Source: Methylophilus sp. (lineage in GTDB: Bacteria; Pseudomonadota; Gammaproteobacteria; Burkholderiales; Methylophilaceae). Taken from it: a stretch of 64,000 bases of DNA. Where the stretch lies: NCBI RefSeq assembly GCF_035460085.1, contig NZ_DATHWZ010000090.1:15006-79005 (forward strand). The letters are read 5' to 3'. Under the pieces are notes generated by a model that saw only the letters and a list, made by a program, of their open reading frames with translations, made no database searches and was not told the DNA's origin. Position numbers and translations under genes: made by a program. Below, piece by piece: positions 31,642 to 47,270 of the stretch (the stretch's first letter is position 1; each line of letters begins with the position of its first letter).

Positions 31642-31773
31642 GCATTCAATCCCCGTCATTCAGCTATGTAATGTTGAGTAAGATGATTCTCTAATGTAAC
31701 CTGAGTCACGCACATCCCTGCTTTGACTTTAGAATAATATAAAACAAGAATAATGAAACCAGTCTTTGGGGGA

Positions 31774-32154
31774 ATGATGAAACGATTGCAACTTAGTATT
31801 GCACTATCTTGTTGCTGGATGTGGATAGCATCTTTTTCACTTTATGCTGAAGAAAATAATGCACAAAAAAATATCTCTCACGCGACAACGACGTTAGCTG
31901 CCTCTTGTGCTGCTTGCCATGGGCCGCAAGGCAACAGTTTGGGGGGAACGCCCACCCTCGCGGCGCTGAATAAGGAATATTTTATTCAACGCATGCAGGG
32001 TTTTAAAAATGGGGCAATCTCATCTACCGTGATGCATCATCATGCCAAGGGGCTCAAGGATGAGGAAATCACCGCATTGGCAAGTTACTTTGCTACCCAG
32101 CAAAGACACACGCCCACAGTAGCGCCACACCAGCCTTTTGAGGGAGCACAATAA
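31774..32154 (+). CDS. fccA: Monoheme c-type cytochrome, flavocytochrome c sulfide dehydrogenase cytochrome subunit
   Basis: Signal peptide; single CAACH (31906-31920), P.LA, Met ligand in STVMHHHAKG; stop overlaps the fccB start. Alternative start 31753. Confidence 0.85.
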   Translation: MMKRLQLSIALSCCWMWIASFSLYAEENNAQKNISHATTTLAASCAACHGPQGNSLGGTPTLAALNKEYFIQRMQGFKNGAISSTVMHHHAKGLKDEEITALASYFATQQRHTPTVAPHQPFEGAQ

Positions 32155-33449
32155 TGCGACTGAACAAACACCTCACTTCCGCCCATGACCTGTCATCCCG
32201 CAGACAATTCGTACGCTCAGTCATCTATGGCGGCCTCGCTTTTTATGGCATGCCGGCTTTTGCACGTGCCAGTAAACCGCCACTGGGACATGTCGTTATC
32301 GTAGGCGCCGGATTTGCCGGGCTGACAGCCGCCAAATATTTGCGCGAATGGAGTATGGGCAATATCAAGGTCAGTATTGTTGAGCCGAATCCACAATTTA
32401 TTTCCTGCCCGCAAAGTAACCTGGTGTTAGGTGGCAGCCGCACGCTGGATGAATTAAGTTTTTCCTATGATTTGGCACGCAAGCGGCATGGCCTGCAATG
32501 GATTAAAGATACGGTCACTGCGGTAGATATCGCAAACAAACAGGTCACCTTGTCACGCGGAAATTTACGTTATGACCGCCTGGTGCTGGCGCCAGGTGTA
32601 GATTTTGATTACAGCCGAATCCCTGGAATGTCTTCACCGGTTGATGATGTTCCACATGCCTGGAAAGCGGGCAGGCAAACCTTGCAATTACACCAGCAAC
32701 TTGAAAGCATGCCGGATGGCGGCGTGTTTGTGATGACGATTCCGGCGGCCCCCTACCGTTGCCCCCCCGGGCCTTATGAACGCGCTTGCCAGGTCGCACA
32801 TTATTTAAAACAAAACAAGCCACGTAGTAAAGTGATTATCCTGGATGCCAATGCTGATATCACCTCTAAAAAAGGCTTGTTTCTGCAGAGCTTTCAAGGC
32901 GCCTATCAGGGCATCATTGAATACCATAACAACAGTAGCATCCTGCAATTAGATACCGCCAGTAAAACTATCAAGACAGACTTTGAGACAGTCAAAGCGG
33001 ATGTCTTAAATGTTATTCCGCCGCAATTAGCAGGCAAAGTGGCTCAAACTGCGGGGTTGGCAAATGTGGATCAGCGCTGGTGTGAAGTAGACTTTACGAC
33101 CTATGCTTCAAACGTAAACCCGGATATACATATCATTGGTGACAGTATTTCGGCAGGTTTGCCGAAATCTGCCCATATGGCCACTTCGCAAGCCAAAATC
33201 TGCGCCGCCGCTATAGTCGATATTCAGTCCGGTATCCCGCCGAATCCGCTGCCGGTATTTGCCAACACCTGCTACAGTTTTGTCGACGATAAACAGGCTA
33301 TGCATGTGGCCAATGTCTACCGTTATGATCCCGCCAAAAAATCCATGGTATCCGCCGAAGGCGGTGGCGTATCCACCAAGGCCTCAGTACAGGAGGGTGA
33401 CTATGCACAAGCCTGGGCGCAGAACATCTGGGCAGACACGTTGACATAA
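32154..33449 (+). CDS. fccB: Flavocytochrome c sulfide dehydrogenase flavoprotein subunit
   Basis: Tat motif SRRQF; GAGFAG FAD-binding; SCPQSN (flavin-attachment Cys); YRCPPGPYERA and NTCYSFV (redox disulfide cysteines); PKSAH motif. Confidence 0.92.
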   Translation: MRLNKHLTSAHDLSSRRQFVRSVIYGGLAFYGMPAFARASKPPLGHVVIVGAGFAGLTAAKYLREWSMGNIKVSIVEPNPQFISCPQSNLVLGGSRTLDELSFSYDLARKRHGLQWIKDTVTAVDIANKQVTLSRGNLRYDRLVLAPGVDFDYSRIPGMSSPVDDVPHAWKAGRQTLQLHQQLESMPDGGVFVMTIPAAPYRCPPGPYERACQVAHYLKQNKPRSKVIILDANADITSKKGLFLQSFQGAYQGIIEYHNNSSILQLDTASKTIKTDFETVKADVLNVIPPQLAGKVAQTAGLANVDQRWCEVDFTTYASNVNPDIHIIGDSISAGLPKSAHMATSQAKICAAAIVDIQSGIPPNPLPVFANTCYSFVDDKQAMHVANVYRYDPAKKSMVSAEGGGVSTKASVQEGDYAQAWAQNIWADTLT

Positions 33450-42249: not shown

Positions 42250-43089
42250 CTACATGATTAACATGTTTGCCACGCCATCCAGGCCGACGAAATTCAATGC
42301 ATATTTGGCTTGTTGCTGCACCACAGGCTTGGCGTGATACGCCACCCCTACTTCGGCGACAGACATCATTTTCAGATCATTGGCGCCATCACCAATTGCT
42401 ATCGTCTGTTTGGCTGTTAAACCAAGTTGATCGCGCAACTTGACTAGCTCATCGGCCTTACGTTGGGCATCGACAATATCGCCCAGCACTTGCCCGGTCA
42501 GTTTGCCATCAACGATTTCCAGCGTATTCGAAACTGCATAATCAAGCCCCAGTGTTTTTTGTACATAATTGGCAAACACGGTAAAGCCGCCAGAAACCAC
42601 CATGGTTTTGATACCGTGTTCTTTACAGATACCTATCCAATGCTGTACACCGGGATTAAAGCGCAAACGTTCATCAATTACCTGCTGCAACGCTGATTCC
42701 GTCAACCCCTTGAGCAGGGCAACACGCTTACGCAAACTGGCAGAAAAATCCAGCTCGCCGCGCATGGCCGCTTCGGTAATCTCTGCCACCTGCGGTTTGA
42801 TGTGCATCATATCTGCGATTTCATCTATGCATTCGATCGAAATCAGGGTGGAATCCATATCCATGACGCACAGGCCAAATTTTGCCAGGCGATGCGCGTC
42901 TTCAACCAATGCATAATCAATTTGCTGACTGGCACAAAACGCTTTCACTTCGACATAATCGCCATCGGCAACCGGCAGGTAATACGCATGCTGAGCGACT
43001 TGTGCAAACTGGTTGTAGCCGCCAACCAGGCCATGAATGTGCGTGAGATGCGCCATGCTGATGGCAGGCCCTTGAACCACTAAACGCAT
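42250..43089 (-). CDS. serB: Phosphoserine phosphatase
   Basis: MDMDSTLI..ECIDEIA, AMRGELDF..SL..RV.LL, VVSGGF, GDGANDL motifs. Confidence 0.95.
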   Translation of the reverse strand: MRLVVQGPAISMAHLTHIHGLVGGYNQFAQVAQHAYYLPVADGDYVEVKAFCASQQIDYALVEDAHRLAKFGLCVMDMDSTLISIECIDEIADMMHIKPQVAEITEAAMRGELDFSASLRKRVALLKGLTESALQQVIDERLRFNPGVQHWIGICKEHGIKTMVVSGGFTVFANYVQKTLGLDYAVSNTLEIVDGKLTGQVLGDIVDAQRKADELVKLRDQLGLTAKQTIAIGDGANDLKMMSVAEVGVAYHAKPVVQQQAKYALNFVGLDGVANMLIM

Positions 43090-43254
43090 GATGAAATCAA
43101 CTCGAATGTAAATGCTGGATTATACCAGTGGAAGCCACAAAGCCTGATTTGTATTGTTGAGGGCATATTTCTGTTTTAGGATTTTCACGCGCGATGGTAT
43201 GCTTGCCAAAAAATTTGAAAACATTAGTTCTCAACATCTTACCTGGGGAAAGTA

Positions 43255-44025
43255 ATGAAACAAGATTCTCAAACGTTACCATGGCTGAACTTGCCTAACC
43301 TGCCATTGCCACTTAAGGCATTATTCGTCGGTTATTTGCTGGTGATTGGCGTTGGCTTGTGCATGGCCGGTCTGCAGATCATGCTGACACACGGCATGGC
43401 TGATGGTAAATTTGGTTTGTCCGTGAACGACATTGTTTATAGCTATTATGGCGACCGCAGCGGCACCAAACTGGCGAGCAAGCTAAACGGCTCCATGTCT
43501 GACAAGGCGCCGCTTGAAGTACGCCAGGATATCATCAAATGGGCGCAGTTGGGCGCACCCCAAGACCAGTGGGAATCGCATTACAAACAGGTTTTTGCCC
43601 AGCACTGTGTCATGTGCCACAGTAATATTCCCGGTATTCCCGACTTTACCAAATATGAAGAAGTGAAAGCGCGTGCCGAAGTGAACGAAGGCGCTACCAT
43701 CAGTGGCCTGACCAGGGTGTCGCATATCCACTTGTTCGGTATCAGTTTTATCTTCTTTTTCATCGGCCTGATTTTCAGCTTTGCGGTGAATGTGCCGAAA
43801 ACAGCGAAAGTGATCGCTATTGGCTTCCCGTTTGCGTTTTTGATCGCCGACGTTATGTCCTGGTGGCTCACTAAGTGGTCGCCGCATTTCGCCTGGCTGA
43901 CCATTATTGGCGGTATGGGTTACAGCCTCGCTTCCACTTACATGTGGGTGATCAGCATGTACCAGATGGTCGTGTTATCGCGCAATGGCAAAGTCTATGG
44001 CAATGCCTGGGCACAAGACCTGTAG
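43255..44025 (+). CDS. Uncharacterised membrane protein with one CXXCH heme-c motif and an HxH motif
   Basis: N-terminal TM, soluble domain with CVMCH (43606-43620), then VSHIHLFG and three further hydrophobic helices. Confidence 0.85.
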
Positions 44026-44042
44026 TCCATTGCCCTCACACT

Positions 44043-44079
44043 AAACAAAAAACCGTACTCAAGTACGGTTTTTTTGTTT
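44043..44079. terminator. Strong intrinsic terminator between the CXXCH gene and sucC
   Basis: AAACAAAAAACCGTAC-tcaa-GTACGGTTTTTTTGTTT. Confidence 0.9.
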
Positions 44080-44144
44080 GTAGCCTAGCTTTGAGTGGGT
44101 ATTTGCGCGAAAATGACAGCTTAATCATAAAAACAGTTTATTTC

Positions 44145-45314
44145 ATGAATCTGCACGAATATCAGGCCAAACAATTACTGCAAAAGTATGGTTTGGTCAC
44201 ACCTGCCGGCCTGGTGGTCCAATCCGAAGAAGCCGCTGCAGCGGCTACCAAAGAACTGGGTGGAGAAGCCTGGGTGGTGAAAGCCCAGGTACATGCTGGT
44301 GGCCGCGGTAAAGCTGGTGGTGTAAAAGTGGTGAAATCCGCCCTGGAAGCACAGACAGTGGCTGGCGGCTTGCTCGGCAAACACCTGGTGACGTATCAGA
44401 ATGCGCCTGATGGCCAGCCTGTGCATCAGGTACTGGTAGAGCAAACGCTGCCGATTGCACGAGAACTGTATCTTTCAATGCTGGTAGACCGCAGCCTGGA
44501 ACGCGTGGTCATGGTCGCTTCGAGTGCGGGCGGCATGGATATTGAGGAAATTGCGGCCACGCAACCGGACAAGATTCTGCAGGAAATCTGCGATCCTTTG
44601 AACGGTCTTGTGGATTACCAGGCGCGTAACCTGGCATTCGGCCTGGGTTTGAGCGGCGACCAGATTGCGGCTTTTACCAAGCTGGCCAAAGGCTTGTACA
44701 AACTATTCAAGGATAACGATTTATCCTTGCTGGAAATCAACCCGCTGGTGGTGACCAGCGAAGGAAAACTGGTCGCACTCGATTGCAAAATGACCGTCGA
44801 TGATAACGCGCTATATAGGCAGAAACCGTTTGCAGAAATCCGCGACTGGTCACAGGACGATGCCAAGGAAGCTGAAGCACATCACAGCGGACTCAATTAC
44901 ATTGCCCTGAACGGCAATATCGGCTGTATGGTCAACGGCGCTGGTCTAGCAATGGCGACCATGGACCTGATAAAACTGCATGGCGGCATGCCGGCCAACT
45001 TCCTCGATGTCGGCGGTGGCGCCACGGCTGAAACCGTGACCAAGGCATTCAAAATCATCCTGGCTGACCAGAACGTGAAAGCCATCCTGGTGAATATTTT
45101 TGGCGGCATCATGCGCTGCGACATTATTGCGACAGGCATCATCACGGCAGTGAAAGAAGTCGGCATGACTATTCCGGTGGTCGTGCGCCTGGAAGGCACT
45201 AACGTAGAACTGGGCAAACAAATGTTGCGCGAAAGCGGCCTGAATATTATCTCGGCAGAAGGTTTGACCGATGGGGCGAAACAGGCAGTTAAAGCAGTAA
45301 GCGAAGGTGTGTAG
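44145..45314 (+). CDS. sucC: Succinyl-CoA synthetase beta subunit
   Basis: True start MNLHEYQAK at 44145; [45 protein letters not shown] motifs. Confidence 0.98.
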
Positions 45315-45316
45315 TC

Positions 45317-46198
45317 ATGGCGATTCTAATCAATAAAAATACCAAAGTATTGTGCCAGGGCTTTACCGGTAAACAGGGCACATTCCATTCTGAACAGGCC
45401 TTGGCTTACGGTACCCAGATGGTCGGTGGCGTGACACCAGGCAAAGGCGGTCAGCAGCATTTGAACCTGCCAGTGTTTAACACAATGCGCGAAGCCGTGA
45501 AAGAAACCCAGGCCAATGCCAGCGTGATTTATGTGCCGCCGCCATTTGCTGCCGACTCCATTTTGGAAGCTGCCGATGCAGGTATAGAACTGATCGTCTG
45601 CATCACGGAAGGTATCCCGGTACTGGACATGCTGAATGTGAAAGCGGCCTTGCTTGCTAATGGCACCAAACTGATTGGTCCAAATTGCCCGGGCGTGATC
45701 ACGCCAGACGAATGCAAAATCGGCATTATGCCGGGTAGCATCCATAAACGCGGCAAAGTGGGCGTGGTCTCCCGCTCCGGCACATTGACTTACGAGGCAG
45801 TGCATCAAACCTCTGCGCTTGGCTTGGGTCAAACCACCTGTGTCGGCATTGGTGGCGACCCCATCAAAGGTCTGAACTTTATTGATTGCCTGGCACTCTT
45901 CCAGAATGACCCGGAAACCGAAGCGATAATCATGGTCGGTGAAATTGGGGGTAGCGATGAAGAAGCCGCGGCTGACTTTATCAAACACCACGTGACCAAA
46001 CCAGTGGCTGCTTACATTGCGGGCTTAACCGCACCTAAAGGTAAACGCATGGGCCATGCCGGAGCCATCATCTCAGGCGGCTCTGGTCGTGCAGAAGACA
46101 AAATCACAGCCCTGGAATCTGCAGGCTGCGTGGTAGCTGACTCCCCCGCCGGCCTGGGTGAAGCGGTATTGGCGGCGATTCAACGTGCTGCAAAATAA
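45317..46198 (+). CDS. sucD: Succinyl-CoA synthetase alpha subunit
   Basis: [38 protein letters not shown] (phospho-His) motifs. Confidence 0.98.
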
Positions 46199-46214
46199 AC
46201 TGTTAGGAGACAGC

Positions 46215-47270
46215 ATGAAGCGTATTCCACGGACCACATACTGGACCAGCCTGTTGTTGTGCGGCACCGTGCTGTTGCTTGGCCTATCCCTGACAACTGA
46301 AGCTGCAAGCAAAAAGAAAAGTAAAGCAGGCCCTGACGAAACGACTATCATAGATAAATCAGCACTGGATGCAGCACCGGTTGATGCTAGCGCAAATATC
46401 TCATATCTTTTGATTGCAGCATCCAAAGGTGATGTCGCAACGGTAAAAGCACTGCTTAAAAGCGGTGCCAACCCGAATGTCGCAGATGCTGAAAAAATCA
46501 CACCTATCATGTATGCCGCACGTAAAAACCAGGCAGAAGTCATACGTGTCTTATTGGAAAGTGGCGCCAGCATTAATGCCAAAGACCAGGGCGGCTGGAC
46601 TGCACTGATGTTTGCCGCCAAGAAAAATAACCTTGATGCCGTTAAAGTGCTGCTGGATAAGGGCGCTGACGTTAAAGTCCGTGACCCCGACGGCTGGAGT
46701 GCGCTTGGTCTTGCCGCTACATCTGGTTACAGTGAGGTGGTTGGCATGATCATTGCAAAAGGCTTCGATGCCAATGTACGTGCCGGGGATGGAAAAACCG
46801 TGCTGATGTATGCGGCCAAAAGTGGCGATGTGCCTACCATCACTAAAATTCTTGAGAATGGCGCTGATCCTAACCTGAAAGACAAGTTAGGTACTACCGC
46901 GTTGATGATTGCTGCCAGGGAAGGTTTGTCGCCTGCAGTGATTTACCTGGTAGAGCATGGTGCCAAAATCGATGAAGAAGACGAGCATGAATGGACAGCC
47001 CTGACCTGGGCAGTCAAAAAAGACCAGCAAGAAGTCGCCAAAGCCCTGCTCGAACGCAAGGCGGATATTGACCATGAAGATAGCGAAGGTACCCCGCTGC
47101 TGCATCTGGCGGTCAGCAACAACTCCCCTGACATGGCGGAGCTGCTGATCAAGCACGGTGCAGATGTCAAAACGCGTGATCAATATGGCCTCACCGCCTA
47201 TGTATATGCGCTTAAAAACCAGAACCCGGCCATGGTCGAACTGATCAAAGCTGCAGGTGGTAAATATTAA
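46215..47270 (+). CDS. Exported ankyrin-repeat protein (nine repeats)
   Basis: AGGAG RBS before ATG 46215; signal peptide ending TEA; nine consecutive ~33-aa T/SxLxxAA...GAD repeats counted by eye. Confidence 0.92.
   Translation: MKRIPRTTYWTSLLLCGTVLLLGLSLTTEAASKKKSKAGPDETTIIDKSALDAAPVDASANISYLLIAASKGDVATVKALLKSGANPNVADAEKITPIMYAARKNQAEVIRVLLESGASINAKDQGGWTALMFAAKKNNLDAVKVLLDKGADVKVRDPDGWSALGLAATSGYSEVVGMIIAKGFDANVRAGDGKTVLMYAAKSGDVPTITKILENGADPNLKDKLGTTALMIAAREGLSPAVIYLVEHGAKIDEEDEHEWTALTWAVKKDQQEVAKALLERKADIDHEDSEGTPLLHLAVSNNSPDMAELLIKHGADVKTRDQYGLTAYVYALKNQNPAMVELIKAAGGKY

Follow-up and report, generated by a model that had tools for sequence, protein, structure and literature searches.

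The locus and its product

The window analyzed here, a 64-kb stretch of a Methylophilus genome, contains at 43255..44025 on the forward strand an open reading frame (ORF) with an ATG start, encoding a protein of 256 amino acids (aa) that is 99% identical to the protein encoded at a Methylophilus flavus locus. A genome search found the gene as a single copy in its own genome. It diverges from an upstream gene for a HAD-family hydrolase (42250..43089, reverse strand) and is followed downstream by sucC (start at 44145) and then sucD. The product belongs to a family, PF27139, that has been catalogued and not studied; it very probably carries a heme c on the periplasmic side of the membrane, and we propose tentatively that it exchanges electrons with periplasmic carriers. 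The features on which this argument depends are listed below.

43255..44025, forward strand: PF27139-family gene, encoding the 256-aa four-helix membrane protein, a predicted cytochrome c (ORF; 2987 homologues at E ≤ 0.001)
43306..43392, forward strand: transmembrane helix 1, residues 18-46, a signal-anchor with His46 at its periplasmic end (hydropathy, AlphaFold2)
43393..43698, forward strand: predicted periplasmic heme domain, residues 47-148, with five short helices (AlphaFold2, charge counts)
43495..43497, forward strand: Met81, the Met of GSMSD, candidate sixth (distal) heme ligand (325/329 relatives)
43606..43620, forward strand: CVMCH heme-c attachment motif, residues 118-122, with Cys118, Cys121, and His122 (329/329 relatives)
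43699..43776, forward strand: transmembrane helix 2, residues 149-174 (hydropathy, AlphaFold2)
43723..43731, forward strand: His157-Ile-His159, residues 157-159, at the periplasmic end of helix 2 (helical in the model)
43798..43878, forward strand: transmembrane helix 3, residues 182-208, with Asp199 (43849-43851) and Trp203-Trp204 near its periplasmic end (AlphaFold2)
43882..43971, forward strand: transmembrane helix 4, residues 210-239, with the invariant Gly220 (AlphaFold2)

Four long helices, spanning residues 18-46, 149-174, 182-208, and 210-239, are found both by hydropathy and in an AlphaFold2 model that was built on 62 relatives and has a mean predicted local distance difference test (pLDDT) score of 93.5 and a predicted template modeling score of 0.83. 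This arrangement of one transmembrane helix, a soluble domain with CVMCH, and three further helices had been described in an original prediction made from the DNA letters, and the coordinates match. Over the 62 relatives, lysines plus arginines average 2.8 for the N-terminal tail, 2.1 for loop 2, and 2.2 for the C-terminal tail versus 0.9 for loop 3. Because these counts obey the positive-inside rule, we infer that both termini lie in the cytoplasm and the CxxCH loop in the periplasm, which supports the export of this domain that had been assumed from the motif. The cytoplasmic parts of the protein are accordingly small, with an N-terminal tail of ∼17 aa, a loop of ∼10 aa, and a C-terminal tail of ∼15 aa.

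A widespread family without a studied member

By sequence, the protein is a member of Pfam PF27139, Aq_1264_TM. The assignment was made indirectly, through the precomputed matches of homologues and through Protein Atlas clusters, the model itself being missing from our local copy of Pfam. All 120 of the homologues listed, which are 70-93% identical to the query over their full length, carry a precomputed PF27139.1 match, and the Protein Atlas contains this exact sequence, with nearest clusters that are 97-100% PF27139. The family takes its name from an uncharacterized protein of Aquifex aeolicus, and its entry gives no function. The suggestion that the protein represents an undescribed family thus holds for its function and not for its cataloguing. 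We found 2987 homologues at E ≤ 0.001, falling into 572 clusters at 50% identity, while full-text searches of the literature returned no paper on PF27139 or aq_1264 and an architecture search returned nothing relevant. In public records, the homologues are often named “elongation factor-1 alpha” or “hypothetical.” The former label is contradicted by the membrane topology and the heme motif; it is wrong and looks like a propagated annotation error.

Comparisons beyond the family gave little. No model of NCBIfam or of our local copy of Pfam matched the 256-aa protein above its cut-off, phmmer against PDB sequences found nothing (best E 0.93), and the Protein Atlas searched with PF27139 excluded gave no usable match. 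Foldseek, proposed together with the original prediction as a way of placing the fold, returned nothing at E ≤ 0.001 when the whole model was compared with the PDB, and VIA-align returned only generic four-helix bundles with Z ≤ 8.0, which is below the meaningful level for helical bundles. We discounted a match to PalH/RIM21 (E 0.0019; 17.7 bits versus a cut-off of 34.1), attributing it to composition. PF27139 is a widespread, catalogued, and unstudied family, and its architecture, in which a heme-c domain is inserted into a four-helix bundle, is without a studied counterpart.

The periplasmic loop as a probable c-type cytochrome

We assessed conservation in two sets of sequences, one of 329 unique near-full-length relatives aligned to the family profile, which is biased toward closer relatives, and a diverse one of 78 sequences comprising the query and 77 cluster representatives. 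CxxCH is present in 329/329 of the larger set, HxH in 325/329 (His157 in 325 and His159 in 328), and Met81 in 325/329; Gly220 is likewise invariant (329/329), and Trp96 (328/329), Asp199 (326/329), Trp203 (320/329), His46 (298/329), and Trp204 (296/329) follow. The diverse set retains Cys121 and His122 in 78/78, Cys118 and His159 in 76/78, His157 in 73/78, and Asp199 in 69/78, while His46 is found in just 32/78; several of the exceptions to motif conservation resemble fragments. A CxxCH can occur by chance, and four stop-to-stop frames of at least 100 aa within the window contain one, but conservation across 329 relatives rules out a chance origin here. The persistence of both CxxCH and HxH was among the checks proposed with the original prediction, and it came out clearly, with only c-type cytochromes matching the CxxCH segment.

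This last point comes from a search of the family profile against all PDB sequences, which matched 33 chains at E ≤ 10, nearly all of them c-type cytochromes or heme-c subunits by their printed names. Examples are a cytochrome c555 trimer (3.6e-6), 4rlr (0.0045; “Cytochrome c, 1 heme-binding site,” which we take to be PccH), hydrazine synthase alpha (0.018), CcoP (0.03), and FoxE (0.041). The matched chains align on the helix-CxxCH segment, and the segment before the motif fits the N-terminal helix of c-type cytochromes. A Pfam scan of 62 members gave matches of the same kind, all below threshold, to Haem_bd (23), Cytochrome_CBB3 (19), PccH (12), and Cytochrom_C (12). When the loop was modeled by itself (residues 45-156, pLDDT 78), FoxE was the best match in both aligners, weakly in each case: it ranked first in Foldseek with an E of 7.4, and VIA-align superposed 5mab_A with a Z of 4.4 and a root mean square deviation of 2.7 over 64 residues at 25% identity.

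FoxE (5mab) and 4rlr, the best though weak matches in sequence and structure, share with the PF27139 protein a helix followed by CxxCH. They differ in being soluble, whereas the PF27139 heme domain sits between two membrane helices, and in the position of the methionine ligand, which follows CxxCH in the FoxE/4rlr type while the candidate in the PF27139 protein precedes it. Nearly all members have Met at position 81, which in three sequences of the diverse set is replaced by His. Histidine also serves as a heme axial ligand, and Met or His at one position is the pattern expected of such a ligand. The genome has a gene for maturation of the CcsA/CcmC type (PF01578, one match, 159.5 bits versus a cut-off of 29.9), and it also carries FixO of a cbb3 oxidase and cytochrome c1.

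The CxxCH could instead be a redox-active dithiol or a metal site in a protein that is not a cytochrome. No cytochrome model exceeds its threshold, and heme attachment is deduced here from sequence, both of which leave some room for this explanation. It would leave unexplained, however, why both Cys residues and the His of CxxCH are all kept in 329/329 relatives, why the residues preceding the motif can be aligned to the N-terminal helix of c-type cytochromes of known structure, and why Met or His is conserved at position 81, and we regard it as extremely unlikely. The protein very probably holds a covalently bound heme c with His/Met ligation that faces the periplasm.

The family profile also gave many weak matches in other genomes (E 1e-4 to 1e-5), confined to profile positions ∼95-145 and lying in frames of 800-1000 aa or of ∼140-150 aa. 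These are probably other heme-c proteins with a helix-CxxCH segment.

The conserved rim of the bundle

In the original prediction, HxH was taken as a ligand pair for heme b or copper, and this is not supported. Residues 157-159 are helical in the AlphaFold2 model, with His157 and His159 inside helix 2 at about two turns from its periplasmic start. Because both lie on a helix at positions i and i+2, their side chains would point to different sides, making it unlikely in the model that they chelate one metal or heme together. In the diverse set, no histidine on another transmembrane helix is conserved to a similar degree, the nearest being His46. Cytochromes of the b561/CybB type have four heme-ligand histidines on at least two transmembrane helices; the conserved membrane histidines of the PF27139 protein differ from this pattern in being His157 and His159 on one helix, with the weakly kept His46 in addition. 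The data, then, give no indication of heme b or copper at HxH.

Asp199 and Trp203/Trp204, on helix 3, lie in the model at a depth similar to that of His157 and His159. The simplest reading of the rim formed by these five residues is that it would provide a seat for the heme domain, in contact with the heme edge and propionates, although it may instead house a quinone or proton site or serve as a relay for signaling.

The same cluster could be read as a catalytic site. The protein would then be the compact quinol-to-cytochrome c conduit of the original prediction, a quinol:cytochrome c oxidoreductase, possibly reversible, with a quinone site formed by His157/His159 and Asp199 at the periplasmic interface under the heme. 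The near-invariant His/Asp/Trp cluster lies, by the model and by conservation, at the depth of periplasm-facing quinol sites, and a histidine with a carboxylate is a common quinol-site pair. The distribution of the family, which extends to Aquificota, can also be enlisted: many of its carriers are organisms in which, as we read their physiology, the electron donors feed in at the level of cytochrome c, among them the Methylophilaceae, Gallionella, Hydrogenovibrio, Thiomicrorhabdus, Sulfurivirga, Methylococcaceae, Nitrotoga, and Hydrogenothermus. The gene is also present, however, in heterotrophs, including Colwellia, Thalassotalea, Agarilytica, and Pseudohongiella, and a single one-electron heme is ill-suited to two-electron quinol chemistry. 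The protein has no similarity to known quinol dehydrogenases by sequence or fold. It shares with NapC/NirT/NrfH/CymA the general character of a membrane-bound c-type cytochrome with heme next to the membrane surface, but these have one helix and four CxxCH motifs where the PF27139 protein has four helices and one CxxCH, and there is no similarity of sequence or fold. We therefore consider a quinol-oxidizing role distinctly improbable, and a seat for the heme domain remains our preferred reading of the rim.

Gene neighborhoods

Loci of the Methylophilaceae type have the order HAD hydrolase, PF27139 gene, and sucCD; among 80 loci, the hydrolase was present in 31 and sucC in 33. At Gallionella-type loci, gltBD, hemE, and priA precede the PF27139 gene and a flavin adenine dinucleotide (FAD) oxidase gene follows it, and at marine metagenome loci the neighbors are mutY, yggX, AsmA, an alanine symporter, or a RuBisCO-cbbQO cluster.

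A different picture was obtained for a family of another class (f35), whose members have two PF27139 paralogues, with identities to the query of 53-57% and 38-42%. Around the second of these, for which we compared 13 loci with crude gene calls (longest non-overlapping ORFs), a gene for a three-domain cytochrome c lies downstream on the same strand in 11/13 and a gene for a monoheme cytochrome c immediately downstream in 9/13. Beyond the cytochrome genes hemN is found in 13/13 and a truncated globin gene in 7/13, and a cca-type gene (CCA-adding/poly(A) polymerase family) lies immediately upstream in 8/13. In a Planctomycetota cluster of the Protein Atlas (547 aa), PF27139 is annotated in 79% of members and Cytochrom_C in 50%. 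Both contexts agree with a role alongside periplasmic cytochromes.

The full order of the f35 cluster (L119-L130, L132) is Fe/Mn superoxide dismutase (not always present), cca-type gene, PF27139 gene, monoheme cytochrome c, three-domain cytochrome c, hemN, and truncated globin.

The neighborhoods also bear on the possibility that the protein is a housekeeping factor for the assembly or maintenance of respiratory complexes, handling metal or heme for them, with His157/His159/Asp199 as a transient site and the heme c supplying or removing an electron. The gene is single-copy and monocistronic and has housekeeping-type surroundings in most lineages, hemE is a neighbor in Gallionella and hemN in f35, and the Trp-rich rim beside conserved histidines recalls heme-handling proteins. 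Against this stand the position of the HxH histidines on a helix, from which, judging by the model, they could not chelate one ion together, the lack of a linked oxidase assembly gene at any locus examined, and the lack of similarity to known assembly factors. An assembly role appears highly improbable to us, and we continue to favor a protein that exchanges electrons with periplasmic carriers.

A marine clade linked to a sigma factor

In a search limited to longer proteins, we found eight clusters of 475-507 aa in which a complete extracytoplasmic function (ECF) sigma factor is fused in frame before a complete PF27139 domain. The sigma part matches Sigma70_r2, r4_2, and ECF above the Pfam cut-offs, and the PF27139 domain is 54-59% identical to the query with CxxCH, HIH, and the Asp intact. 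The fusion is a single open frame in the metagenome contigs L145, L146, and L147 (e.g., L147:1617-3140, 507 aa) and is truncated in L148. In L149, L151, and L155, the two proteins are encoded by separate genes (e.g., L151:2087-3623); in L149 and L151 these share a strand, with the sigma gene first and gaps of 28 and 13 nucleotides (nt), respectively. The operon order is DUF4142 protein, cupredoxin, sigma factor, and PF27139 protein, and the genes for the DUF4142 protein and cupredoxin come first in all of L145-L151 and L155. The sigma-linked copies form one clade with a support of 0.996 (133 leaves), and the linkage was found in 7/77 metagenome loci, all belonging to this one marine clade. The window contains no ECF sigma factor, and none lies beside the gene at 100 genome loci.

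Fused forms were not found elsewhere: there were none among proteins of 658-2000 aa in a family-alignment search, none in 32 genomes of one order (that of G380), and among the matches listed for 400 genomes of the class, a tally that takes in three genomes marked as unpublished (G583, G595, and G435), none spans both halves. The extensions of nine longer representatives were also compared with domain models; one contains an SPW domain, and the others have no domain match.

The 244-aa sigma factor has a conserved C-terminal extension of its own (YEFGxHHCD) and also occurs away from the PF27139 gene. It stands without one at L154:9941-10675, is followed at +1 by a gene for a TM_HPP protein overlapping the sigma stop codon at L160:8807-10245, and is accompanied at L152:1492-2700 by a decayed remnant of a PF27139 gene. 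We considered whether the TM_HPP protein of L160 is a relative of PF27139 and found no relation (hhalign probability 0.2). Among the groups of the ECF classification, ECF220 proved to be from Polyangiaceae.

These findings bear on a suggestion of the original prediction, that the protein might be a redox sensor. Put more fully, it would be a heme-based transmembrane sensor or regulator whose periplasmic heme, through its redox or ligand state, alters the bundle and so controls a partner in the cytoplasm, which in one marine clade would be an ECF sigma factor held by an anti-sigma-like tether. The eight in-frame fusion clusters with intact motifs, the adjacent separate genes with the sigma gene first, and the single well-supported clade all speak for such a role. 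In-frame fusion persists in several diverged clusters, which suggests from sequence that the two proteins may touch. In the sections of the ECF classification consulted (PMC7826278), a membrane protein at +1 is one criterion by which a gene product is called a putative anti-sigma factor. Anti-sigma factors with four and with six helices are described there, and polytopic examples are given, namely NrsF/OsrA of ECF16 and the four-helix candidates of ECF36 and ECF209, together with a sigma/anti-sigma fusion, ECF36s3. The marine clade resembles the polytopic anti-sigma factors outlined in those sections in having the PF27139 gene at +1 of, or fused to, an ECF sigma gene. The sigma group itself had no match in the sections of the classification consulted, and the terms “DUF4142” and “HPP” were not found in the portion of its supplement 1 that was searched (PMC7826278).

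On the other side, the linkage is limited to one clade, with 7/77 metagenome loci and 0/100 genome loci; the window and almost all other lineages lack it, unlike the linkage of ECF anti-sigma factors. Also unlike these, the window protein has no cytoplasmic sigma-binding domain: it has almost no cytoplasmic portion, its N-terminal tail being ∼17 aa, and no anti-sigma Pfam model matches it. Since the sigma factor has its own extension and occurs without the PF27139 gene or with TM_HPP, the PF27139 protein may be a member of its regulon and not its regulator. Our literature searches turned up no heme-c anti-sigma factor, and a heme with six-coordinate His/Met ligation is seen more typically in electron carriers. 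The redox-sensor suggestion thus gains from the adjacency and fusion in the marine clade and loses from the lack of an ECF sigma factor in the window and at the 100 genome loci, and on balance we find it somewhat unlikely. A broader version, in which PF27139 proteins as a whole are c-heme transmembrane redox sensors of the periplasmic cytochrome c/cupredoxin pool that act through the His/Asp/Trp rim, with the marine clade directly controlling its ECF sigma factor without a canonical anti-sigma domain and the Methylophilus copy signaling to another partner, we take to be unlikely.

A membrane-fixed electron carrier as the favored function

The function that we favor, as a tentative reading, is that of a His/Met heme-c module fixed in the membrane, which would exchange electrons with carriers of the periplasm and have the bc1 and cbb3 of this genome as possible membrane partners. 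The loop of ∼100 residues between helices 1 and 2 would be a small c-type cytochrome. Its heme would be attached to Cys118 and Cys121 by the System II maturation machinery, with His122 as the proximal and Met81 as the distal ligand. The heme domain would rest on the four-helix bundle at its periplasmic rim, where His157, His159, Asp199, and Trp203/Trp204 would support it instead of forming a second cofactor site. The protein could then act as a one-electron carrier at the level of cytochrome c, passing electrons to or from soluble carriers (cytochromes c and, in one clade, cupredoxin) and membrane complexes. Three observations that bear on this question are new relative to the original prediction: the resemblance, though weak, of the heme segment to c-type cytochromes only (FoxE, PccH), the position of the f35 paralogue immediately upstream of two cytochrome c genes, and the adjacency or fusion to an ECF sigma factor in the marine clade.

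Membrane-anchored cytochromes c of the cytochrome cy/c552 type have one anchor helix and a flexible linker, which hold a heme-c domain at the periplasmic face, where exchange occurs at the cytochrome c level. The PF27139 protein shares with them a single heme-c domain on the periplasmic side of the inner membrane, but in place of the single helix it has a four-helix bundle that is rigid and contains invariant His, Asp, Trp, and Gly.

Several points weigh against the function as an electron carrier. A four-helix bundle with invariant polar residues exceeds what an anchor needs, since the known anchored cytochromes c have one helix. No cytochrome c model of Pfam or NCBIfam reaches its cut-off on the 256-aa protein, and the structural matches are weak, with none at E ≤ 0.001 in Foldseek and a Z of just 4.4 in VIA-align. 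Most lineages have housekeeping neighbors and no redox partner, as at the Methylophilaceae, Gallionella, and marine loci described above, and the sigma linkage points to signaling over bulk electron flow. Coverage by RNA consists only of short contigs, one of which, of 153 bases and from a soil RNA library, lies over 43882-44030.

Methylotrophs and the oxidizers of iron, sulfur, and nitrite depend centrally on c-type cytochromes for respiration, and many such organisms carry PF27139. As an electron carrier, the protein would be a link in periplasmic electron paths that current models lack; as a sensor, it would represent a new way of coupling periplasmic redox state to transcription. In either case, PF27139 offers a small target for heme and redox assays, one that is easily expressed.

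Flanking features and other genes of the window

The gene had been described as monocistronic, with a divergent upstream neighbor and a strong terminator, and the sequence supports each of these, with a terminator-like hairpin placed at 44047-44074, slightly shifted from the 44043-44079 first given. The flanking features are as follows.

43175..43203, forward strand: promoter-like block, with a weak -35 (TTTAGG/TTAGGA) and then TGG-TATGCT, an extended -10-like element (putative, read from the sequence)
43244..43251, forward strand: GGGGAAAG, a putative ribosome-binding site immediately 5' of the ATG (read from the sequence)
44047..44082, forward strand: intrinsic-terminator-like hairpin of 12 pairs (44047-44074) plus a T run (terminator search)

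The promoter-like block, ...TATTTCTGTTTTAGGATT...GATGGTATGCTTG, was not called by an automated promoter scan and is repeated 5' of the gene at other Methylophilus loci. Between it and the putative ribosome-binding site lies a near-palindrome, TTGAAAAC-ATTA-GTTCTCAA (43215-43234), which we considered as an operator and dropped, as it is kept only among the closest relatives.

Downstream of sucCD, the window encodes at 46158-47270 on the forward strand a 370-aa protein made up almost entirely of ankyrin repeats, and a gene at that position recurs in Methylophilaceae loci. Elsewhere in the window (31753-33449, forward strand), a small cytochrome c gene (133 aa) lies immediately 5' of a gene for a flavoprotein of the flavocytochrome c sulfide dehydrogenase type (431 aa), which is followed in turn by a glucose/sorbosone dehydrogenase-like gene.

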